From positions 480,001-544,000 of the forward strand of contig CAVWVI010000003.1 in NCBI GenBank assembly GCA_963758495.1: a stretch of 64,000 nt of DNA, in the 5' to 3' direction. The stretch comes from Oligoflexia bacterium. GTDB lineage: Bacteria > Bdellovibrionota > UBA1018. The notes under the pieces are model-generated. The model was not told the DNA's origin. It did no database searches and saw only the letters and a program-made list of their open reading frames with translations. The translations under genes and the position numbers were made by a program. Every line of letters begins with the position of its first letter. Position 1 is the first letter of the stretch. Positions 1 through 14,775 of the stretch are shown piece after piece.

Positions 1-251
1 GCAGAAACTAAAATGACCTTCGTATGAATATTATTACTTTCTTTGATCTTTCGACAAATATCATAGCCATTCATCCCACTCATCATAATATCCAAAAGCA
101 CTATATCAGGCATAAATTCATTTACTTTTTGAAGAGCTTCGTCACCATTTGAAGCAGAACTCAGCTCACACATATCTTTGAGTAGATGTTTTAAAATATC
201 TATATTTCTAGGATCATCATCTACTGCCAATATTTTTCCAAAACCACTCAT
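1..251 (-). CDS. Response regulator receiver domain (partial, runs off window start)
   Basis: Own translation: MSGFGKILAVDDDPRNIDIL...PDIVLLDIMMSGMNGYDICRKIK...VILVSA. ATG at 251 overlaps the kinase stop (ATGA). Not in the ORF track. Confidence 0.9.
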   Translation of the reverse strand, partial: MSGFGKILAVDDDPRNIDILKHLLKDMCELSSASNGDEALQKVNEFMPDIVLLDIMMSGMNGYDICRKIKESNNIHTKVILVS

Positions 252-1975
252 ATAACCTCTTTTACTGGAATAATAAAAACGAACTCCGTGTCGTTGTTAT
301 TCTTATTTTGCGCAAAAATCTGACCATGATGAGCGGTTATGATTTCTTCAGAAATTGCCAAACCTAATCCCGTTCCACCAGCGCCTGAGCTCGTCCTACT
401 GCTTTGAACGAATTTATCAAAAATAGTACGCAATTCAAGCTCTGGAATTCCAACGCCAGCATTTATTATAGAAACCGATACTGCATCCCCCACCGGCAAT
501 GACGCCGCTTTTATCTCGATCCTAATCTGAGTCCCTTCGTAAGAGAATTTAATTGCATTCGAAATTAAATTTCTTAAAACTTGCTTAATTTTCTCCTTAT
601 CACAACAGACCACTGTAGAAATACCTGAAGTCTTTACTTCAAAGGATAATTTTTTATTAGCAAAAAGCGCATTAAACTCAGCACATACCGAATCTACACA
701 GAACTTCAAATCATATGGATTATAACGATATTCTATTTTTCCAGATTCTAACTTTGAAAGGTCCAACAAATTATTCAACAACTCCAACAAACTATGACTA
801 CTCTCTATGATTTGATTAAAATAATTTTGAATGGTCTTTTGAGACGCCGAAAACACTTCTTTTTTTCCAAAATTAGCATAACTTAAAATACCATGCATCG
901 GGGTCCTGAGCTCATGAGACATATTTGCTAAAAATATAGATTTAGCTTCATTCGCTGCTTCGGCTACCTCTTTCGCTTTTCGTAATTCATACTCAGACTT
1001 CTTTCGGTCACTAATATCATGAACCATAAGGATAAACACTTTCCAATTTCCCAAATAGGCTGCACTCACACCCAACTCCACGGGCAGAGTCATAAGATCC
1101 TTTCTTAAAGCTACGGTATCAATGCGATGGCCTATCAGTTCTCTGATATTTAAACTTTCAATATTTATAATTTTTCCAATTTCTGCGATCAAGACATCCC
1201 CAGCCAAGAGCGTCTTAAACGACATCTTCTTAATCTCAGCTTCGCTAAAACCAAAAATACGTTCTGCAGCAGGGTTAAACGATTCAATCACGCCATGATG
1301 ATCTACTGTAATGACTCCATTTGTAACGTTATCCACGACAGCTCTCACTCTCGCGTTTGCCTCAGCTATCTTTATATTTTGCTCTTCAATCATTCCTAAA
1401 GTTTGTTGCTTAATAGATTCATAAATTAGAGTTAATGCTAAAATAAGCGATAATAGTGCCTCTAATACGCTGAGTTGAAGATATTTCATTTGCTGAAGAG
1501 GCAATGAATACGAAGGACGATAATTCAACTGATCAGCTACAAACCAAATTATAATTTCTAAAAATGTGATCACCGCCCACACAATTCCTGAACGGGCACC
1601 TACTAAACAAATAGCAACCATCGGGATTGCTACTTTCCACATGAGAGGCGGCGAACCACTCCCTCCACTGATGTAAGTCGCGTAAGAGAGAACTAAAAAT
1701 AAATCGAAGGTAATCGCATTTCCAGCCAGAGCAATCGAACCTGTCCACTTCAATAAAAATGGAACCAAAAGAGCACCTATGGCCGACAAAGCGATTCCAA
1801 CTCCACCCCTTCGTGAGTTTAAAACAAAATAGTAAAACATCGAAAATGGAATGCCGCCCACTAGTAACAATGCGAACGAAAATGTAATCGTTAATTTAGC
1901 GTGGCGTCGCGACTCAGAACCTTTAACATCGAGTGATTTAGGAATAAAGTAATCGAAAAAATCACGAATTACCAC
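248..1975 (-). CDS. Multi-TM sensor histidine kinase with PAS domain
   Basis: About 6 N-terminal hydrophobic helices; PAS (FNPAAERIFG); H-box FLANMSHELRTP; N-box NLISNAIKF; G2 GGTGLGLAI. Confidence 0.95.
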   Translation of the reverse strand: MVIRDFFDYFIPKSLDVKGSESRRHAKLTITFSFALLLVGGIPFSMFYYFVLNSRRGGVGIALSAIGALLVPFLLKWTGSIALAGNAITFDLFLVLSYATYISGGSGSPPLMWKVAIPMVAICLVGARSGIVWAVITFLEIIIWFVADQLNYRPSYSLPLQQMKYLQLSVLEALLSLILALTLIYESIKQQTLGMIEEQNIKIAEANARVRAVVDNVTNGVITVDHHGVIESFNPAAERIFGFSEAEIKKMSFKTLLAGDVLIAEIGKIINIESLNIRELIGHRIDTVALRKDLMTLPVELGVSAAYLGNWKVFILMVHDISDRKKSEYELRKAKEVAEAANEAKSIFLANMSHELRTPMHGILSYANFGKKEVFSASQKTIQNYFNQIIESSHSLLELLNNLLDLSKLESGKIEYRYNPYDLKFCVDSVCAEFNALFANKKLSFEVKTSGISTVVCCDKEKIKQVLRNLISNAIKFSYEGTQIRIEIKAASLPVGDAVSVSIINAGVGIPELELRTIFDKFVQSSRTSSGAGGTGLGLAISEEIITAHHGQIFAQNKNNNDTEFVFIIPVKEVI

Positions 1976-3807
1976 TTCATCCCCAAAAAATAGAACAATG
2001 CCTTACGGGAAGCAAACTTCCATTTTAAATAGGCTAACGTTTTTACGCTGAGATTATATCCCATTTTTCCTTCAATAAATAAATCTCGAGAAGCCCTTCT
2101 TTTGACTTTTCCGCTGGAGGTTTTTGGCAAAAATCCTGGAGAAACAAAAATTACTTCTTCAACTTTTAGCCCGAATCCCAAATGAACTGACGCAATGATC
2201 TCTTTCCGTATTTCATTCTGAGATCGCCATACCCGAGGATTTATTTCAGCAGCAATATAAAGTGATTCCGTACCTTCATTATTTTTATTAGAAAAAGCAA
2301 CGACCCTTCCCACTCTCAGTCCCTTAATTTTAGAAAGTCGTGCTTCAATATCAGAAGGAATAAAATTTTGACCCGCGACGATAATTAAATCCTTTAAACG
2401 ATCTAGCACAAAAAGCTCACCATTAGCTATATACCCAAGATCTCCAGTACGTAATTGCTCTCTTGGTTTTTTCTGAAGATCATTCTTTTTAAAATAATAA
2501 GGTGAAATAGATGGACCTTTCGCTACAATTTCACCTACAGATCGCTCTGGCAATTCAATAATATTTTCAGAATTTGGATCGCAAATCTTTAAGAAGTGAT
2601 TAGGAAGTACTTTCCCTACCGAGACAAACGATAATGAATTTTCAGAAAGTGGATCCGTAGGTACCGCACGTTTTTCATTAATCAACTTCAATCGATCTAC
2701 ACAATCATACCGGGTTTCAGTATTACTCGCAGGAAAAGATAAAGCTAAAGTCGTTTCAGCCATTCCATAAACCGGATAAAAGCTGGTCGATCGAAATCCG
2801 TATTTTCTAAATTTTTGAATAAAGCCTTGAGCAGTTTCTACATCAATAGGTTCTGCTCCTATAAATGCTAACCGCCAACTAGATAAATCAAGCCCGGAGA
2901 GATCTCGATCAGAAATTTTTTTTAGTGCAATATTATATGCGAACGTAGGACCTACTGAATAAGTGATTTTAAAATGATCAATCCCCTTTAACCATGCTAC
3001 AGGACGAGTAATAAAAGTAAGTGGAGAGAAAATATACGAGGGGATTCTCCAATATATTGTAAAAAACAAACTACCGACCAATCCCATATCGTGATAAAGA
3101 GGAAGCCAAGACAAGAGTCGATCAGTTTTGGAATTCACTTTACTCGCAATCCCCATTGCAAAGAGATTCGCTGCAAGGTTTTCGTGCGTAATAACTACAC
3201 CTTTTGGATTTCCCGTACTTCCAGAAGTGTATTGAATAAATGCGATATCGCATAAAGGTTGAACAGGGAAAGAAGCGCAAGCTTCCTTAGTAGGGTCCAT
3301 CAAAGTCGACTTGATATAGATTTCATCCACCTCTACTACAGGAACATGAAAATCCGTTTCCCCCATATGCCGATTCCAAAGAATTGAATTTTCAATAATA
3401 ATGAGACTTGGATCACAATCCTTCTGAACAAGACGAATGCGCTTTATAAATTCATCAGGTACTCCAAAATCAGAAAAAGTAGGGAGTGGAACTATGATAA
3501 AGCCTTCTATCATGGCTCCTAATATGCAGGAAAGAAATGCATGTGGATCTGAAACGCAAAGGATAATTCGATCTCCCTGCTTAAGACCATATACAGATTG
3601 CATAATCTGAGCATAACTCCGTGCTCTCGCTGCAAGTTCTTCATAGGATAGAGGCAAGTCCAAAAATCCCGCCCCCTTAAGACTGACTTTCGAACAGGCC
3701 AGAGCTTTAGGACAAAAAGCGACGTTCTCGGAAAATCGAGATAACAAAGTGGGAAACTGGCTTTGATTCGCATTAAACTCTACGGAGTTTTGTTTTTCAA
3801 CCAACAC
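1969..3807 (-). CDS. Fatty acyl-AMP ligase (FAAL)
   Basis: YTSGSTGNPKG, SWLPLYHDMGL, GAEP, YGMAE, RTGDLG and LPKTSSGK motifs; FAAL-type insertion (VDRLKLINEKRAVP); ACP gene in the same operon. Confidence 0.9.
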   Translation of the reverse strand: MLVEKQNSVEFNANQSQFPTLLSRFSENVAFCPKALACSKVSLKGAGFLDLPLSYEELAARARSYAQIMQSVYGLKQGDRIILCVSDPHAFLSCILGAMIEGFIIVPLPTFSDFGVPDEFIKRIRLVQKDCDPSLIIIENSILWNRHMGETDFHVPVVEVDEIYIKSTLMDPTKEACASFPVQPLCDIAFIQYTSGSTGNPKGVVITHENLAANLFAMGIASKVNSKTDRLLSWLPLYHDMGLVGSLFFTIYWRIPSYIFSPLTFITRPVAWLKGIDHFKITYSVGPTFAYNIALKKISDRDLSGLDLSSWRLAFIGAEPIDVETAQGFIQKFRKYGFRSTSFYPVYGMAETTLALSFPASNTETRYDCVDRLKLINEKRAVPTDPLSENSLSFVSVGKVLPNHFLKICDPNSENIIELPERSVGEIVAKGPSISPYYFKKNDLQKKPREQLRTGDLGYIANGELFVLDRLKDLIIVAGQNFIPSDIEARLSKIKGLRVGRVVAFSNKNNEGTESLYIAAEINPRVWRSQNEIRKEIIASVHLGFGLKVEEVIFVSPGFLPKTSSGKVKRRASRDLFIEGKMGYNLSVKTLAYLKWKFASRKALFYFLGMKW

Positions 3808-4552
3808 TCATTCCTCCATCTACTCTGATGGTAGCGCCTGTCAAATAATCTGTTTGACACGTGACCAAAAAATACACGACCTCTGCAATCTCATCGGCTT
3901 CTCCTAGTCTAACTTTAGGGATTTTTGATAAAATAAATTTCTCAACTAAAGCCTTTTCTCCTGAAAGCATCGATGTGTCACAATAGCCAGGAGCAATCGC
4001 ATTAACAACGATTCCCTGATCCGCTAATTCTCGAGCGGCTGAATAAGTAGCAGCAATAATTCCTGCCTTTGATGCTGCATAGACCGAAGCAAGACCAGCC
4101 CCTCTCTCTCCTGCGACTGAAGCAATGTTAATAATTCTCCCTCGAGTTTGGTTGGCCATAATAGGAGCAAATACCCCCATGCAACTCAAAGTGCCGTAGA
4201 GATTAACATCAAGTACTCGCTGAATTTTTGAATCTTCCATCATCAACAAGGGTGTTCTAATAAATATTCCTGCGTTATTTACTAAAACATCTGCCCGACC
4301 ATAGGCGGATAAGGTTTTTTCTGCTACCTTTTCAATATCACTACGAACTGTCACATCCATTTCAGCAACCAATAAGTTTGAGTTTGAGTTTGAGTTAAAG
4401 TCCGATTGAATTTTTTCTAATCCAACTGTTGAAATATCTGTGGCGACGACATAAAAATCGTTTAAAAGTAATTTTCTAATGATTGCATAACCAATACCAC
4501 CAGCTGCGCCAGTCACCACCGCCACACAACGATCAGATTTATTATAATTCAC
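3797..4552 (-). CDS. SDR oxidoreductase, FabG/3-oxoacyl-ACP reductase-like
   Basis: TGAAGGIG, NNAG, YAASK, VNAIAPG and VDGG motifs. Confidence 0.9.
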   Translation of the reverse strand: MNYNKSDRCVAVVTGAAGGIGYAIIRKLLLNDFYVVATDISTVGLEKIQSDFNSNSNSNLLVAEMDVTVRSDIEKVAEKTLSAYGRADVLVNNAGIFIRTPLLMMEDSKIQRVLDVNLYGTLSCMGVFAPIMANQTRGRIINIASVAGERGAGLASVYAASKAGIIAATYSAARELADQGIVVNAIAPGYCDTSMLSGEKALVEKFILSKIPKVRLGEADEIAEVVYFLVTCQTDYLTGATIRVDGGMSVG

Positions 4553-6402
4553 AAATAGAACTCCTTCTCCTGTGCACTAAATTGCTTCGCCAAAACTAAA
4601 TCCTCTGAGCTCACCCAGGAGCTAAACTGCTTCGATCGCCCAAGTGCCTCTTGAATCCTTTGCCGGAAGAGATATTTACAAAGGCTCCCGTGAAGCAAAG
4701 GAAAATCAAGTAACTCTCTCGCAATTAAATCTATTACCGCAGGATGAGTTACTGTCCTATCTTTGAAGCAACGCTGGATTGCTGCCAACAAAGAAATAGT
4801 CATGGCATCTATAATTCCCAACTCAAATCGACCTTTACGGTAGTCCGCTTGGGCTAATTTATTTAACTGTTGAGTCACTTTTCCTATTGGAATACTCTTT
4901 TTAACAACCGGTGAATGACTGAGTAGGAGTTTAGTCAACTGGCTAGAATCGAAATTTTTAAGAATAGAGCTAAGACGACGACAAAATCCAAACTCCCTAA
5001 GACTAAAATCTACATTCTCTGGACTCCCGCCTCTTGCGCAATACATAAGAAGTGGAGTTACATATGCAACTAGTAAGCGATTAATCGCATATTGGTTTTG
5101 TGGTCTTGTAACTATTGTTCGAAATCCTGCATTTGAAAGATATCGAAAGAGAGCTCGTGTAGACTCCGTAGCCTCACCTTCTAACGCGATCTCGACCAGA
5201 TCTTGTTTACTAGGATAAAGAGGATTATAGAGATTAACAGACGCAGATTTTGTATTTTCCCATTCCTGTAAATCTCCAAAACGAATCACATAGGCGTACT
5301 TGTCTTTTATCTTCGGTGTTTTTACATAAAGATGAAAGATCGATGTCCCTGGATCACCTTGCGATCTTACATTTAATGAGGAAATTAAATCAATCTTGGC
5401 TCCTCTCATTTTTCGCCTTTTTAAATCTCTCTGAAGTAGCAAGAGTCGTGAAGAGTCGTTTGAAAATAGAACTTTCCATTGAGTTGCCTCATTTTGCTCT
5501 CCTCTAAGACAAATCCCCTGCACCGATTGACGAATAAAGAAAAATGAAAGGGCAGCTTTCGATATAGGATTCATTACTGACTTCCCAGCACAAGCAAGTT
5601 CAAGATGGTAGTCACTTTCCTGAATTTGACTCTTAACTGAGGCACTTTTCATTAAATTAAAACAGTCACGATAGACTTCATGATAAGCAGGAGGAAGTGC
5701 AACAATTCTTTTTTCATTTTTTTGAAGCAAAGACTTTGTTTGACTTGGAGTTAATAGCACTCGTCTTTGCTTTCTTTTTTTTAATTCCTTTTTAGCCTTG
5801 ATCGCCTTTTGAACGAAGGAATCTACATTGACTTGAAACTCAGAGTCATTAAATACATCATCGACCAGGCCATTACGTTTTGCGACTTGAGATGACCATT
5901 TTTCACCCCACAGTAAAAAATCAACTGCCTTATTGAGTCCCACCAACCGAGGGAGATTCTGAGTCGCTCCAAAGGCTGGGATAAAGAGATAATCATGGAT
6001 TTCAGTCATATAAAAATGACTATCAACGGTATTTGCAACAAGGCGGTAATCACAATTCAAAACAAACTCGACCCCACACCCGTAACAGTTACCTTGGATT
6101 GCAGCGAATGTAGGTACTTTTGCCGCTTTTACACTTTGATAAGCTCGACGAATTCCTGCAGTTAACTTCAGTGCATCCTCTGGAGTGTGGACTGCGCTTG
6201 CTAACAGTAAACCCACTCCATTGATAAAACTACCTGATTTAGAGCTTTGAAATACTACTGCTTCAACCGGCTCTTTCTCAATAGAAAGCATAGCCTGCTC
6301 CACTTGGGTTGCTGTAGCATTATCTAAAATATTCACAGCAGAACCAAGAGTATTAAAATTTACATAAAGTATCCCATTTTTCCGCTCTAGTGTAAGAGAC
6401 AT
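4549..6402 (-). CDS. Crotonase/enoyl-CoA hydratase, FadJ-like N-terminus with divergent C-terminal half
   Basis: SFINGVGL, GNCYGCGVEFVL and MTE...PAFGATQNLPRLVG match the FadJ hydratase domain; no GxGxxG dinucleotide motif in the C-terminal half. Confidence 0.8.
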   Translation of the reverse strand: MSLTLERKNGILYVNFNTLGSAVNILDNATATQVEQAMLSIEKEPVEAVVFQSSKSGSFINGVGLLLASAVHTPEDALKLTAGIRRAYQSVKAAKVPTFAAIQGNCYGCGVEFVLNCDYRLVANTVDSHFYMTEIHDYLFIPAFGATQNLPRLVGLNKAVDFLLWGEKWSSQVAKRNGLVDDVFNDSEFQVNVDSFVQKAIKAKKELKKRKQRRVLLTPSQTKSLLQKNEKRIVALPPAYHEVYRDCFNLMKSASVKSQIQESDYHLELACAGKSVMNPISKAALSFFFIRQSVQGICLRGEQNEATQWKVLFSNDSSRLLLLQRDLKRRKMRGAKIDLISSLNVRSQGDPGTSIFHLYVKTPKIKDKYAYVIRFGDLQEWENTKSASVNLYNPLYPSKQDLVEIALEGEATESTRALFRYLSNAGFRTIVTRPQNQYAINRLLVAYVTPLLMYCARGGSPENVDFSLREFGFCRRLSSILKNFDSSQLTKLLLSHSPVVKKSIPIGKVTQQLNKLAQADYRKGRFELGIIDAMTISLLAAIQRCFKDRTVTHPAVIDLIARELLDFPLLHGSLCKYLFRQRIQEALGRSKQFSSWVSSEDLVLAKQFSAQEKEFYL

Positions 6403-6403
6403 A

Positions 6404-6676
6404 TTAAGTATTCCGGCTCAATACATCATGAATATATTCACACAAAGAGCTAATAGTGAGTAACTGAGGATCATCGCACCTACTAATCCAATCATTTAAA
6501 AGAAGAGGTCGATTAAATTCATCTTCCAGTGCAAGAGAGAGCGACACCATTCTCAGCGAATTAAAGCCGAGCTTTGCTACAAAAGAATCTGCATCATTAA
6601 GTTCCACCTTTTTTCCCAAGGCAGCTAAGACCGCTTTTTTTACTTTTAAATTAATTTTATCATTCGTTAGTTCCAT
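6404..6676 (-). CDS. Acyl carrier protein
   Basis: 90 aa; LGFNSL phosphopantetheine Ser motif followed by LEDEF and TISSLCEYI. Confidence 0.85.
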   Translation of the reverse strand: MELTNDKINLKVKKAVLAALGKKVELNDADSFVAKLGFNSLRMVSLSLALEDEFNRPLLLNDWISRCDDPQLLTISSLCEYIHDVLSRNT

Positions 6677-6744
6677 GCTATTTCTGCCTTCCCACCCTGT
6701 TTACACAGGAAAAATTAATCATCTTTAATTATAAAATAATGAAT

Positions 6745-8088
6745 TTAATTACTTACCTTAGACAATCGATCCTTAATTAATCTCATTTTTACACCACCGG
6801 CTGGCGCTATTGTCACTGTACGTCTCACCGGGACAACAGGTTTATTTTCTAATAATTCAAGAGAATATCGCTTCAAAATCGTCGCTATTACTATTTTCAT
6901 TTCAGTCAATCCGAAAGCCATGCCAATACAGCGACGTACGCCGCCTCCGAAAGGTAGATACTCATGAGGGGTAAATCTCCGTTCCAAGAATCGTTCTGGC
7001 TTAAAAGAACCAGGATCTGGGTACAAATCTTCTCTATGATGAGTTAAATAAATACATGGAGTGATCTGCATTCCTGCATCAATAGTAAATTCTAATATTT
7101 TTACAGGAACTTGTACTCTTCGAGAGACCACAGGAATAACAGGATAAATCCTTAGAGTTTCCTTAACCACTGCATCGAGGTAGCTTAACTGATGAAGTGA
7201 ATCCAGCTTTTCATCTGTTCCATAGAAATCCAACTCTGAAATCAAGGTCTCTTGAACTCCTGGCGTACAATGAATCCAATAAAAAGCCCAAGTCAAAGCG
7301 GTAGCGGTAGTTTCATGCCCCGCTAAAAGAAGCGTGACAATCTCATCTCTCAACTCAATATCAGAGAATTTCCCAACATCAGAATGAGACGCAAGAAGTA
7401 GACTGAGAATATCTTCATTTTTTAGAGTGGCGTTCCCTCTCCGCTCTGTGATCTCGGCAAAGATCAGTACGTCTAATTGCGATGATCTCGTACGAAACTT
7501 TTCCCAAGCATGCCAAAGCCCTGAATCACTTTTATCAGGGACACTCACTAAAGTACTAAAGCTTGCAGAATCCAAAAGAGGGACTAAAAGCGTTTTCATA
7601 TCCGAAATGCGTGTACATTCTTCACCAAACACTGATTGTAAAATAATTTCTAATGAAATATCCAACATCAGAGAATGCACATTAAAAGTTTGATTCAACT
7701 CATAAAAGGACAAAGCGCTCTCCACTACCTTCTTCATTAGCTTTCCATAGGCCCTCATGCGATCACCATGAAAAGCTGGACTCATAATCTTTCGATGCTG
7801 CATATGGGGACAGGCATCCAACAATAAAAGAGAACACTCTCCCAAAAAGGGGCGTAAAATCGCATTTCCCTCGCCCGCATAAAAAACCTCGGGATCTCCC
7901 TTAAATACTTGTTGAATTGCATCAGGATGACTAAAAAATATATGTTTACCCAAGCCCTTGAACTCTAATGTAAATGCATCTCCATACCGCTTCTTACACT
8001 CCTGCATAAATGCAAAAGGGCGAGAAAACCATTGAAAGGTTTGTTCTTCAGGAGGAATTTCTGGGCCTGATGGCAAAAAAACTTCCAT
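6745..8088 (-). CDS. Cytochrome P450 (CYP110-like)
   Basis: I-helix AGHETT, ETLR (ExxR), PERF and heme loop FGGGVRRCIG. Confidence 0.97.
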   Translation of the reverse strand: MEVFLPSGPEIPPEEQTFQWFSRPFAFMQECKKRYGDAFTLEFKGLGKHIFFSHPDAIQQVFKGDPEVFYAGEGNAILRPFLGECSLLLLDACPHMQHRKIMSPAFHGDRMRAYGKLMKKVVESALSFYELNQTFNVHSLMLDISLEIILQSVFGEECTRISDMKTLLVPLLDSASFSTLVSVPDKSDSGLWHAWEKFRTRSSQLDVLIFAEITERRGNATLKNEDILSLLLASHSDVGKFSDIELRDEIVTLLLAGHETTATALTWAFYWIHCTPGVQETLISELDFYGTDEKLDSLHQLSYLDAVVKETLRIYPVIPVVSRRVQVPVKILEFTIDAGMQITPCIYLTHHREDLYPDPGSFKPERFLERRFTPHEYLPFGGGVRRCIGMAFGLTEMKIVIATILKRYSLELLENKPVVPVRRTVTIAPAGGVKMRLIKDRLSKVSN

Positions 8089-8202: not shown

Positions 8203-8592
8203 TTACCTACATACGGATTCTTCAATTTTCAATTGATATTTTTGAATTTTTTCAAGAGTTAAACTCATTTTATGAAATTGCTTAAACTCAGCAAACCCAT
8301 AGAACTCAACCCATAAATTTGCTATTTCGCTTAAGAGCGGCCTTATCCTCTTATACTTTGATTCGGCCCCCACTAAATCCATATGATTCTCTACTTCTTT
8401 TAAGCGATCCTCTGACCAGCCTTGCCAATCTCTATTATCTAAATTCAATAAATAGATTTGGGCCTCCTCCAGACTATGGTTCAATATTATAAAATCATGC
8501 GAGCATAGTTTTTTAACTGTTGGAAAACAACTGGTCAACATACTTAAAGTAAGAATCAAACTTCCAATAACTAGGATCCTGTTACTTTTCAC
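8203..8592 (-). CDS. Hypothetical lipoprotein
   Basis: Signal peptide ending in lipobox LTSC; GTG start 7 nt after a GCCGATGA element. Confidence 0.6.
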   Translation of the reverse strand: MKSNRILVIGSLILTLSMLTSCFPTVKKLCSHDFIILNHSLEEAQIYLLNLDNRDWQGWSEDRLKEVENHMDLVGAESKYKRIRPLLSEIANLWVEFYGFAEFKQFHKMSLTLEKIQKYQLKIEESVCR

Positions 8593-8814: not shown

Positions 8815-9648
8815 ATGGGATTGCGTATCAATACAAATATTCAGGCTCTCACAGCTCAACGATTCTTGGGCATAAACAGTGAACGTCAAAAAAACTCTTT
8901 AGATCATCTGTCTTCTGGTTCGCGAATCAATAAAGCCGGGGACGATGCTGCAGGGCTCGCCATCAGCGAAAAATTAAAATCCGATATTCGCAGCTTAAGA
9001 CAGGCGACCCGAAACTCAAACGATGGAATCAGCCTGATCCAAACCGCAGAAGGCTCGTTGAATGAGATTGGTAATATTTTAGTCAGATTAAGGGAATTAT
9101 CGATTCAGGCTTCTTCTGATACCATTGGAAATCCAGAAAGACAGTTTGTCGATAAAGAAGTTCAACAATTGAAATCTGAAATCGATCGAATTTCCTCTAC
9201 CACAGAATTTGATGGTACTCGACTCTTGGACGGAAGCTCTCCTCCTCTTGAGTTTCAAGTGGGCATCCATAATAATCCACTCCAAGATCGATTTGTGTTC
9301 GACTCTGGAAGCCTTTCCTCTACCCTCGAAGCATTGAATTTAGGTGCTGTTACAACTACCACAAAGGAAGGCTCTCAACAAAACTTAAGTATGCTGGATG
9401 AAGCGATAGAACACATCAATGGAAATCGCGCTACTTTGGGTGCACTTCAAAATAGGATGCAATCCACCGTAGCCAATTTAAATACCTATCGAGAAAACAT
9501 TGAAGCAGCAAATAGTCGAATTCGAGATACTGACATAGCAGAAGAATCAAGTGAACTGGTCAGGGATAATATCTTAAATCAGACGAACGTCGCCATCCTC
9601 TCTCAAGCAAACCAATCGGCTCAATTGGCCCTCAAGCTGATTAGTTAA
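8815..9648 (+). CDS. fliC: Flagellin
   Basis: MGLRINTN...LSSGSRINKAGDDAAGLAIS at the N-terminus and SRIRDTD...QANQ at the C-terminus; 277 aa with almost no variable domain. Confidence 0.98.
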   Translation: MGLRINTNIQALTAQRFLGINSERQKNSLDHLSSGSRINKAGDDAAGLAISEKLKSDIRSLRQATRNSNDGISLIQTAEGSLNEIGNILVRLRELSIQASSDTIGNPERQFVDKEVQQLKSEIDRISSTTEFDGTRLLDGSSPPLEFQVGIHNNPLQDRFVFDSGSLSSTLEALNLGAVTTTTKEGSQQNLSMLDEAIEHINGNRATLGALQNRMQSTVANLNTYRENIEAANSRIRDTDIAEESSELVRDNILNQTNVAILSQANQSAQLALKLIS

Positions 9649-12691: not shown

Positions 12692-13600
12692 TTGCGGAGC
12701 TTTTGCATGAAGAATATCTCGAAGATGATCTCCCCAGTTTTAAATCGTAATCTCATCTTTGTGCACGGCAAGGGAGGGGTTGGAAAAACTGCAGTCTCTC
12801 AAGCAATCGCACTTCAACTTGCTCAAAGAGGAAAACGAACTCTATGGATCACTCTTGAAGACCCTACTCTACCCGCAGGAGAGTTCAAAAATCCCGAACC
12901 TCATCTATGGCATCTCAACTGTAGTTTCACTCAAGCTTTTGAAGAATATGCGTCCATGAAGATTGGTTTCGCTCCTCTCACCCGAATTTTTTTGCAAAAT
13001 AAGCTCATGCGTTATCTAGCTAAAGCTGCGCCTGGTATTCACGAATTAGTACTACTAGGAAAAATTTGGTTTGAAAGGAATCATTACGCTCATGTAGTTG
13101 TAGACTTGCCTTCTACTGGATATGGATTAGCCATGTTTCAGAGTACTCAGAATTTTATAAAATTGTTTCATGGAGGCCCGCTACACCGAGATGCTGATGC
13201 TATGATGGATACATTTAGAGATCCTCAAGCGACCGGCCACCTTATTTTAGCATTACCTGAAGAAATGCCACTGCGCGAATCTTTGGAGCTGAATCAATAC
13301 TTAAAGGAATTCTTTCCAAAAAATCAGGCTGTTTTTATAGTAAATCGTGTTTTTCCTCTGATCGAAAATTCAGACCCCAAAGAAATAAATCCTTCACCCT
13401 CTTGGCCAAGTCCACTTGCCACCTCCATCCATGATTACATTCTCAAACGTATCTGGTTAGAAAGGCACAACTTAAGACTTTGGAGAGATGAAAAAATTGT
13501 CTTCGGCGAATTAGAATTCATTCCTCCGCCTCCTCTAGACGCCCCTCTTCTCATTGTAAGACGACTAGCTGAACAGCTTCAAAATAAGGCTTATTTGTGA
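12692..13600 (+). CDS. ArsA/Get3-like ATPase, subunit 1
   Basis: GKGGVGKT, APGIHEL and DLPSTG; start more likely ATG 12707. Confidence 0.85.
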   Translation: MRSFCMKNISKMISPVLNRNLIFVHGKGGVGKTAVSQAIALQLAQRGKRTLWITLEDPTLPAGEFKNPEPHLWHLNCSFTQAFEEYASMKIGFAPLTRIFLQNKLMRYLAKAAPGIHELVLLGKIWFERNHYAHVVVDLPSTGYGLAMFQSTQNFIKLFHGGPLHRDADAMMDTFRDPQATGHLILALPEEMPLRESLELNQYLKEFFPKNQAVFIVNRVFPLIENSDPKEINPSPSWPSPLATSIHDYILKRIWLERHNLRLWRDEKIVFGELEFIPPPPLDAPLLIVRRLAEQLQNKAYL

Positions 13601-14775
13601 CTGAAATTGAACCCAAAATTGAACCCAAAATTAAAAAAGACACGGAAATAGACCCCTTAAACAATAAAATAGATGAAGCTTTAAAAAAGCGTAAAATTTT
13701 AATCACCTGTGGCACAGGAGGAGTTGGTAAAACTACGTTGAGTGCTGCCATCGCCATTCGCGCAGCAATGCTGGGGAAAAAAACTGTCGTCATTACAATC
13801 GATCCCGCTAAACGACTGGCAAATTCGCTTGGACTTCATACTTTAGATGATCAACCGACTGACTTAACCCCACAAATCAAAGAAATTTATGAAAAAGCCC
13901 AAGCAGCTCAAGTTCCATTACCCTCTCCTACTTTCAGCGGCAGTCTGACCGCCATTGTACCTGATACCCGGAAGACCTTTGAAACTTTTGTAAGGGAACT
14001 CGCATCTAATCCACTTACGGCAGAACAGGTCATGCAAAATCCCATTTTTAAAATTTTTGCGAAAGAGTTTTCAGGTACAAACGAATATATGGCATTAGAG
14101 CGTCTTTTTGCGCTTAAGCAAGAAGGGAACTATGATTGCATTATTTTAGATACTCCTCCGAGCCGTAACACTCTCGCATTTTTAGATGCTCCCAAAGTTC
14201 TTTCTCAGTTTTTTGAGGAGAAACTCATACGATGGCTTGTGTTACCTGCAAATAAATTGCTTACCACAGGAATGAAAAAGGCTTTAGGAATTCTGGAACG
14301 CCTCACTGGAGCTGGGTTTATGACAAACCTCTTTGACTTTGCTGCAGCGCTCTTTGAGGTTCAATTTAAATTCACCGCTAACTTAAAAAAAATTACGACT
14401 CTCTTAGAATCCCCTGAGGTAGGGTTTTTAATGGTGACAACCCCTACTCCCGATACTCTTACGGAAGTCAACCTCTTCATCGAAAATCTTCACCAGCGAA
14501 AGTTTCATTTTGAAGGAATTGCCCTCAATCGAACACTGGGGTATTTAAAACCGGACTACTCTAGACCAGAATTAAAAAAAGCCGTGGAAATTATTCAAGC
14601 TCTTCAAAAAAGAGAGCACCATGTCATTGAAAGTTTAATGAGGAATCCGAATGCACTTTGTGCGAAACTACCTGAATTGGCACGAGATGTTCATTCAGTG
14701 GAGGACTTATTTCATGTGGCTTTGGCTCTCAATACTCCTGACATTTCAAAGCATGAGTTATGGAGCTCCATCTAG
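13597..14775 (+). CDS. ArsA/Get3-like ATPase, subunit 2
   Basis: GTGGVGKTT, TIDPAKRLA, EYMALE and DTPPS. Confidence 0.9.
   Translation: MTEIEPKIEPKIKKDTEIDPLNNKIDEALKKRKILITCGTGGVGKTTLSAAIAIRAAMLGKKTVVITIDPAKRLANSLGLHTLDDQPTDLTPQIKEIYEKAQAAQVPLPSPTFSGSLTAIVPDTRKTFETFVRELASNPLTAEQVMQNPIFKIFAKEFSGTNEYMALERLFALKQEGNYDCIILDTPPSRNTLAFLDAPKVLSQFFEEKLIRWLVLPANKLLTTGMKKALGILERLTGAGFMTNLFDFAAALFEVQFKFTANLKKITTLLESPEVGFLMVTTPTPDTLTEVNLFIENLHQRKFHFEGIALNRTLGYLKPDYSRPELKKAVEIIQALQKREHHVIESLMRNPNALCAKLPELARDVHSVEDLFHVALALNTPDISKHELWSSI

Follow-up and report, generated by a model that had tools for sequence, protein, structure and literature searches.

A likely lipid-signalling operon of an Oligoflexia bacterium, with a FadJ-derived crotonase and a sensor kinase that is fused to the fatty acyl-AMP ligase in its closest relatives

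The stretch of DNA analysed here (64,000 nucleotides, positions 480001-544000 of contig C3, CAVWVI010000003.1, of an Oligoflexia bacterium; hereafter the window) begins within an operon on the minus strand that combines the loading and tailoring of fatty acids with membrane sensing. Because its tailoring enzymes are accompanied by a sensor kinase which, in the closest relatives, is fused to the loading enzyme itself, the operon is likely to be an undescribed lipid-signalling circuit. It runs past the start of the window, and the DNA lying there was examined as well. Its features are the following, with C3 coordinates for those outside the window.

6745..8088, minus strand: cytochrome P450, 447 aa; Pfam p450, with the I-helix GHETT and heme FGGGxRRCIG motifs present
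6404..6676, minus strand: dedicated acyl carrier protein (ACP), 90 aa; PP-binding (Pfam and NCBIfam)
4549..6402, minus strand: FadJ/MFE-derived crotonase, 617 aa; ECH_1; marker gene of the cluster family
3797..4552, minus strand: FabG-like short-chain dehydrogenase/reductase (SDR), 251 aa; adh_short, with TGxxxGxG, NNAG and YxxxK intact
1969..3807, minus strand: fatty acyl-AMP ligase (FAAL), 612 aa; AMP-binding; best NCBIfam match a fatty acyl-AMP ligase
1969..2000, minus strand: FAAL/kinase junction, where the two open reading frames (ORFs) share 7 nt directly after a T6G4 run
248..1975, minus strand: sensor histidine kinase, 575 aa; predicted six-helix MASE6/MASE11-like membrane domain, PAS, HisKA (H354) and HATPase
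1..251, minus strand: first receiver of a hybrid kinase, REC-PAS-HisKA-HATPase-REC, 665 aa, whose whole gene (C3:478254-480251) extends past the window start
C3:477590-478252, minus strand: Sfp/HetI-type phosphopantetheinyl transferase (PPTase), last gene of the operon, past the window start
C3:476328-477593, plus strand: FadL/OmpP1-family porin gene, convergent, overlapping the PPTase stop

Seven of these genes had been labelled in the initial annotation, made from the letters of the window alone, and both Pfam and NCBIfam agree with its labels and with their place on a single strand; the last of them, read there as a response regulator, does contain a receiver domain, but as the first receiver of the hybrid kinase and not as a stand-alone regulator. 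The tight packing described from the ACP onward is confirmed: in transcription order, 68 nt separate the P450 and ACP genes, followed by distances of +1, -4, -11, -7 and -4 nt, and the hybrid kinase and PPTase genes lie +1 nt apart. Since the PPTase gene is found past that of the hybrid kinase, both kinases sit between FAAL and PPTase. No ketosynthase is present in the cluster of the window, as had been noted, and no polyketide synthase or nonribosomal peptide synthetase was seen in the 38 kb past the window start, where seven ORFs were scanned against Pfam and the others judged by eye from their translations. The operon encodes neither a thioesterase nor a redox partner for the P450.

The crotonase is the enzyme by which the cluster family can be followed. 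About 100 near-full-length homologues, of 28-40% identity, were present among 120 matches listed; the gene was found in none of 40 relatives of the host, and in the host phylum a full-length copy was found in four of 401 sampled genomes, the host counted. Both hydratase glutamates (E112 and E134) are kept in 99 of 99 aligned rows, while the family invariants N61-G62 and G-C-G (C109) replace the AGAD and GGG of FadJ, the latter position being, we assume, that of the oxyanion hole. The dehydrogenase motifs GxGxMG and HFFxP, on the other hand, occur in none of the 99 rows, as opposed to five of five FadJ-like controls. The predicted model (predicted local distance difference test score, pLDDT, 94) shares its fold over the whole length with FadJ, FadB and MFE (Z 33.3, 577 residues aligned, root-mean-square deviation (rmsd) 4.8); among single-domain crotonases DfsA ranks first (Z 26.6), with generic hydratases level at 26.4 and 26.0. 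Taken together, these motifs point to a family that derives from FadJ, has apparently not been described before and has a dehydrogenase half that is dead.

Two more familiar identities were considered for this enzyme and rejected. The parallel with RpfF that had been drawn earlier does not hold, in that a protein of 617 aa stands against a single domain of about 290 aa, and the score with PRK08788, which we take to be the RpfF family, is 45 bits against a cut-off of 177, below those of six ordinary crotonases of the same genome. An active FadJ is likewise dismissed, as both the NAD-binding and the catalytic motifs of the dehydrogenase half are gone; ordinary FadJ-length proteins are retained elsewhere in the host genome.

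The remaining enzymes are more conventional. Ser40 of the ACP is invariant in 123 of 123 aligned rows. The 50 P450s of the cluster family share 34-57% identity, and, with its I-helix and heme motifs retained, the enzyme of the window probably acts as an ordinary monooxygenase. The A3 and A10 motifs of the FAAL, K567 included, are invariant in 43 of 43 rows, and its top NCBIfam and PDB matches are FAALs and not CoA ligases (NCBIfam 379 bits, cut-off 600), which removes the proposed correspondence with the CoA ligase RpfB. The basic, aromatic C-terminal tail of this FAAL aligns with the linker of proteins in which FAAL and kinase are fused.

Such fusions of FAAL to a transmembrane (TM) domain were found in seven sequences. 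In four of them (L020, L040, L056 and P0122), FAAL, membrane domain, PAS and kinase make up a single protein of about 1200 aa, and in the three others (L023, L060 and L154) the same FAAL-TM fusion is ended by contig edges. The fused FAALs retain their catalytic motifs, and the in-frame fusion persists at 40-55% FAAL identity. The FAAL of the window nests among them, within an 8-row clade (support 97, FastTree) in which L056 is nearest, with 55% identity; in addition, L020 and L040 share with the window the order kinase, hybrid kinase, PPTase. An unfused kinase of the same type directly follows FAAL in L031, L036, L037, L044 and L052, which belong to a different FAAL clade. Within the host phylum, all four genomes with a full-length crotonase among the 401 have this kinase. 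The sensor is present in 16 of the 401, where five close matches (the host and four fusions, three of which had served to build the search profile) all lie in the cluster. The fusion of the kinase to FAAL in the nearest relatives, together with its placement between FAAL and PPTase here, indicates that its link to the enzymes, already proposed in the initial annotation, is not due to chance.

The position of the window FAAL among fused FAALs also suggests that the two-gene form is likely a secondary split. A -1 shift at the T6G4 run would join the FAAL and kinase frames, but the resulting linker would be 7 aa shorter than in six of six natural fusions, whose linkers are equal in length; an assembly error at the junction is thus less likely than a real split, as is frameshifting. 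At least one other probable frameshift exists in the assembly (97 matched stretches). The gene at C3:1485255-1486989, which, going by its motifs, we take to encode NADH dehydrogenase subunit D, is split by a frameshift that is probably an assembly error.

The membrane domain of the sensor is predicted by AlphaFold2 to consist of six helices (pLDDT 94), a number that fits the cytoplasmic placement of both termini required by a FAAL fusion. Its best structural match is Mycobacterium tuberculosis Cya (Z 15.7, 200 residues aligned, rmsd 5.2), followed by mammalian adenylyl cyclases (Z 12.4 and 10.6) and ImcA (9.8), over a background of about 8 to 9. The TM domain alone has no NCBIfam or PDB sequence match; with MASE6 it scores 13.9 bits, below the Pfam gathering cut-off of 27.4, while the L056 fusion reaches 24.2. 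Eight of 13 aligned TM domains match MASE6 weakly, and Atlas features are MASE6/MASE11-like. According to passages of published work on this class, the six-TM Vibrio quorum receptor CqsS can replace the Cya anchor and confer a response to CAI-1 (PMC4821796), fatty acids are reported as ligands of mammalian adenylyl cyclase anchors (PMC11606603), and a hydrophobic pocket is described in the membrane bundle of Cya (PMC9433096); MASE11 is presented with no known ligand (bioRxiv 10.1101/2021.11.05.467447). The earlier reading of the PAS kinase as a sensor of lipid type is thereby strengthened: the predicted fold belongs to a six-TM class linked to lipid and CAI-1 sensing, a shared fold that does not identify the ligand. 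As for the hybrid kinase, for which a query gave 90 matches in the host genome, its second receiver carries Asn where the acceptor Asp would be expected; its counterparts in L020 and L040 retain Asp, and a receiver-cyclase gene is added there.

The wider family was studied in 125 loci, of which 45 come from genomes and 80 from metagenomes (the best of 138); clustering gives 97 groups at a threshold of 90% identity and 55 at one of 60%. Genes were called by a custom codon-based script, individual calls of which may err, and trees were built with FastTree, the crotonase tree giving long-branch warnings. Thirty-seven loci were informative, having at least 5 kb of flank on each side, and 24 lineage groups had enough flanking DNA for neighbours to be compared. 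ACP adjoins crotonase in 122 of the 125 loci, the three exceptions having crotonase at a contig edge; FAAL is present in 36 of the 37 informative loci, P450 in 23 and SDR in 14, and 34 encode at least one of P450, AurF-like diiron enzyme, desaturase, fatty-acid hydroxylase and radical-SAM enzyme. The constant core thus consists of FAAL, ACP and crotonase, with an interchangeable oxidase and an optional SDR. Ketosynthase-like ORFs, sought with a FabF-like query from the host genome, occur in two of the 125 loci (L035 and L054). Most of the hosts that have a name belong to Myxococcota, the others being Bradymonadales, Binatia, Bdellovibrionota and a single Nitrospirae genome; versions of the cluster are present in the cultured strains Pyxidicoccus fallax DSM 14698 and Lujinxingia vulgaris TMQ2, the Lujinxingia locus encoding the same sensor type. 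Three receptor types recur in the 24 lineage groups, among which kin are not independent: the kinase type of the window in four, a second membrane kinase type in four, and a chemoreceptor in three. No description of the cluster or of the FAAL-kinase fusion was found in a search of open-access papers. The cluster family is real and apparently undescribed, and the kinase link is firm in the lineage of the window, while the role in signalling is a proposal.

A number of other elements accompany the family. The second membrane kinase type adjoins the clusters of L033, L039, L042, L043, L049-L051, L055 and related metagenome loci; it usually has two kinase modules around a receiver, in clusters with mostly an AurF-like diiron enzyme and a desaturase, and when the two membrane-kinase types were compared, hhalign aligned only the post-membrane helix, one of seven alignment rows looking poorly framed. 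In L028 (10381-17191) and L078, a complete chemosensory operon (CheW, CheR, CheW, chemoreceptor, CheA, CheB) directly follows FAAL, and a radical-SAM enzyme takes the place of the P450. A Polyangiaceae version (L011:6253-9768, minus strand) encodes a P450-FAAL fusion of about 1085 aa, and in L057 (13-1023) and L058 the ACP gene is immediately preceded, on its own strand, by a FadL-family gene, a second FadL linkage. Near the cluster in 32 of 125 loci (including L013, L017, L019, L021, L022, L025, L028 and L034; for example L022:6218-6727, minus strand) is a gene whose product, some 170 aa long, combines what looks like a signal peptide with conserved cysteines and an AOC/DUF3224-like barrel. 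This protein may serve as a lipid carrier or as a cyclase. Its gene often occurs in loci that have no linked kinase and is present in eight of the 13 lineage groups lacking recurring receptors; none was found in the host genome. Candidate alternative ligand readers are a TIGR02265-like protein (weak match) encoded downstream of the P450 in nine loci (L025, at 4530-5105, L032, L034, L035, L041, L065-L067 and L080) and an FHA-LuxR regulator in four.

Around the operon of the window itself, a 129-aa ORF with a lipoprotein-like N-terminus (8203-8592, minus strand) lies 114 nt upstream of the P450 gene on the same strand; it is without a Pfam or NCBIfam match and without a homologue in the 125 loci. 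It is followed by a divergent 277-aa flagellin gene (8815-9648, plus strand), and further on by two tandem ArsA-family ATPase genes (12692-14775, plus strand), then genes for a TPR protein, GshA and PAP2. On the far side of FadL (L001:13352-14306), there are a short ORF of 214 aa that matches nothing in Pfam and a nucleotidyltransferase substrate-binding fragment of 98 aa, possible relics at the edge of an insertion. The GC content of the cluster is 39.1%, against 42.2% for the genome, and is equally low in 19 of 303 genome windows; no plasmid matches were found, and a promoter and terminator scan gave site numbers no higher than in shuffles. Query searches of the host genome revealed no close paralogue of FAAL, ACP, PPTase or FadL.

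A route through the operon can be proposed as follows. The PPTase would prime the ACP, onto which the FAAL would load a free fatty acid, possibly imported by FadL; the P450 would then oxidise the chain, a step for which relatives would use a diiron enzyme, desaturase or hydroxylase instead or alongside, and the SDR could optionally adjust the oxidation state. To the FadJ-derived crotonase we would assign the family-defining step, probably dehydration or isomerisation, as well as release, since apart from FAAL no other enzyme is invariant and the operon has no thioesterase gene. The lipid might then partition into the membrane and be bound there by the six-helix sensor, with phosphotransfer from the sensor to the hybrid kinase as the next step. 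In its widest form the proposal is that a novel class of fatty-acid autoinducer circuit is distributed across predatory bacteria: the signal would be made by the FadJ-derived crotonase and freed by it from a dedicated ACP, its dialect would depend on the interchangeable oxidase, and the receptor would, in the present lineage, be a kinase with a working N-terminal FAAL, uniting synthesis and sensing in one polypeptide; in that full extent it is put forward tentatively, and we consider it less likely than not.

The narrower claim, that the operon makes a modified fatty-acid signal sensed by the co-encoded kinase, is the reading we favour, at about even odds, and several observations weigh against it. 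The kinase type of the window is found in only four of 24 lineage groups, and in 13 of the 24 no receptor of the three recurring types lies within 8 kb (in one of these 13 a different kinase adjoins FAAL), so that the conserved co-occurrence of enzymes and kinase anticipated in the initial annotation stands for one part of the family and fails for another; five receptor-less genomes, of unstated completeness, have no close copy of the sensor elsewhere, one weak match being noted. All fusions lie in one FAAL clade and four of seven come from one genus, which makes a single fusion event probable. The fold match of the sensor is modest for a helical bundle (Foldseek against Cya: TM-score 0.54, E 0.07, 10% identity), and the fold alone does not specify a ligand, given that the sensor family is large (2265 representatives) and that 11 of 11 distant relatives in the phylum lack the cluster within the flanks examined. 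The operon encodes no DNA-binding output domain or transcription factor, so that positive feedback is not evident. Lastly, passages of a review on diffusible signal factor (DSF) credit RpfF as the only crotonase with thioesterase activity (PMC4504480), which makes release by the FadJ-derived enzyme a conjecture.

The FAAL-kinase fusion is equally compatible with sensing of the product and with a kinase that monitors the supply of fatty acids or the flux through FAAL. The chief alternative, possible though short of probable, is indeed that the kinase reads substrate or flux (fatty-acid availability, or the formation of acyl-AMP or acyl-ACP), and that the product is a structural, defensive or other non-signalling lipid. 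Sensing of a diffusible product needs no fusion of the first pathway enzyme to the cytoplasmic N-terminus of the sensor, and the equal linkers of the six fusions, the absence of a linked receptor from about half of the lineages and the FadL gene that adjoins the cluster both here and in L057 and L058 would fit a flux-reading kinase; however, the window and five further loci with this type of sensor keep FAAL as a protein of its own, no fewer than three types of receptor are repeatedly found next to the cluster, a pattern to be expected of signal-receptor pairs, and the sensor has its own predicted membrane pocket class. It could also be argued that the operon disposes of external fatty acids such as prey lipids or DSF-type signals, FadL importing them, the kinase sensing them and the enzymes inactivating them. 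Although the crotonase descends from the beta-oxidation enzyme FadJ, FadL is adjacent, and the named hosts are largely Myxococcota, Bradymonadales and Bdellovibrionota, which are predatory groups, this explanation is improbable: FAAL, PPTase and a dedicated ACP are equipment for biosynthesis, the crotonase has lost its dehydrogenase motifs throughout the aligned family, the host genome keeps ordinary FadJ-length proteins, and neither thiolase nor acyl-CoA dehydrogenase is a recurrent annotated neighbour. Very improbable, finally, is a chance association, in which the kinases would be passengers that joined a mobile lipid-tailoring cassette with no functional link; the preservation of the in-frame fusion over considerable FAAL divergence, the overlapping stops and starts with which both kinases are set between FAAL and PPTase, and the occurrence of the same sensor type after FAAL in two FAAL clades speak against it, even if host genomes are kinase-rich, as the 90 hybrid-kinase matches in that of the window illustrate, and the cluster is low in GC and has a patchy distribution, with 40 of 40 relatives lacking it.

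Should the operon indeed make and sense a lipid signal, its chemistry would be distinct from that of DSF, CAI-1 and 3-OH fatty esters, and would be in use in myxobacteria, Bradymonadales and Bdellovibrionota; it would also provide a candidate ligand for an orphan six-TM sensor family of more than 2000 representatives, with a predicted fold like that of adenylyl cyclase membrane domains. Both the FAAL-kinase fusion and the altered crotonase site (N61, C109) can be tested on their own, and cultured strains bearing the cluster exist.

Comparison with known systems places the operon between several of them. With the DSF/Rpf system (RpfF, RpfB and RpfC-RpfG in Xanthomonas, RpfF-RpfR in Burkholderia), in which dehydratase plus thioesterase activity gives a cis-2-enoic acid, it shares the clustering of a crotonase fold bearing both catalytic glutamates, an acyl-activating enzyme and a multi-TM kinase. 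Unlike that system, its crotonase derives from FadJ, measures 617 aa and carries N61 and C109 in the region of the oxyanion hole, it has its own ACP, FAAL, PPTase and oxidase where DSF draws on intermediates of fatty acid synthesis, and the partner of its sensor is a REC-PAS-kinase-REC hybrid with no HD-GYP (RpfG) or EAL (RpfR) domain. A tandem layout of kinase and receiver-kinase is also that of PhcS/PhcR. In DSF systems, the synthase is described as physically coupled to the receptor (PMC6361424; PDB 3m6m), and the five helices given for RpfC (PMC4504480), against six in the model of the window sensor, set aside the earlier equation of the two. The pairing of a lipid signal synthase with a membrane histidine kinase recalls both CqsA/CqsS, for CAI-1 (PMC4821796), and Ralstonia PhcB/PhcS/PhcR; in contrast to the CAI-1/LAI-1 systems (CqsA-CqsS, LqsA-LqsS), the pyridoxal phosphate-dependent synthase is absent from the nine genes of the window locus and no methyltransferase is present in the operon. 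Caryoynencin and protegencin clusters also combine FAAL and a dedicated ACP, and an excerpt on such polyyne clusters describes a fatty acid that is loaded, oxidised and released on this ACP without a ketosynthase, P450 being optional (PMC9828172); the operon differs from them in having no desaturase triad, thioesterase or rubredoxin, an invariant crotonase, and co-encoded receptors. The crotonase resembles FadJ/FadB in its whole-length fold and both hydratase glutamates, but it is smaller by about 100 aa, lacks the dehydrogenase motifs as well as a thiolase partner, and invariably adjoins an ACP. Class III adenylyl cyclases (M. tuberculosis Cya and the mammalian enzymes) have the six-TM domains that best match the sensor, which is joined instead to a PAS kinase, and in relatives to FAAL. 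The operon falls outside the DSF, Cqs and polyyne families, and by analogy it likely works as the DSF, Phc or Cqs circuits do, with carrier chemistry of the polyyne type.

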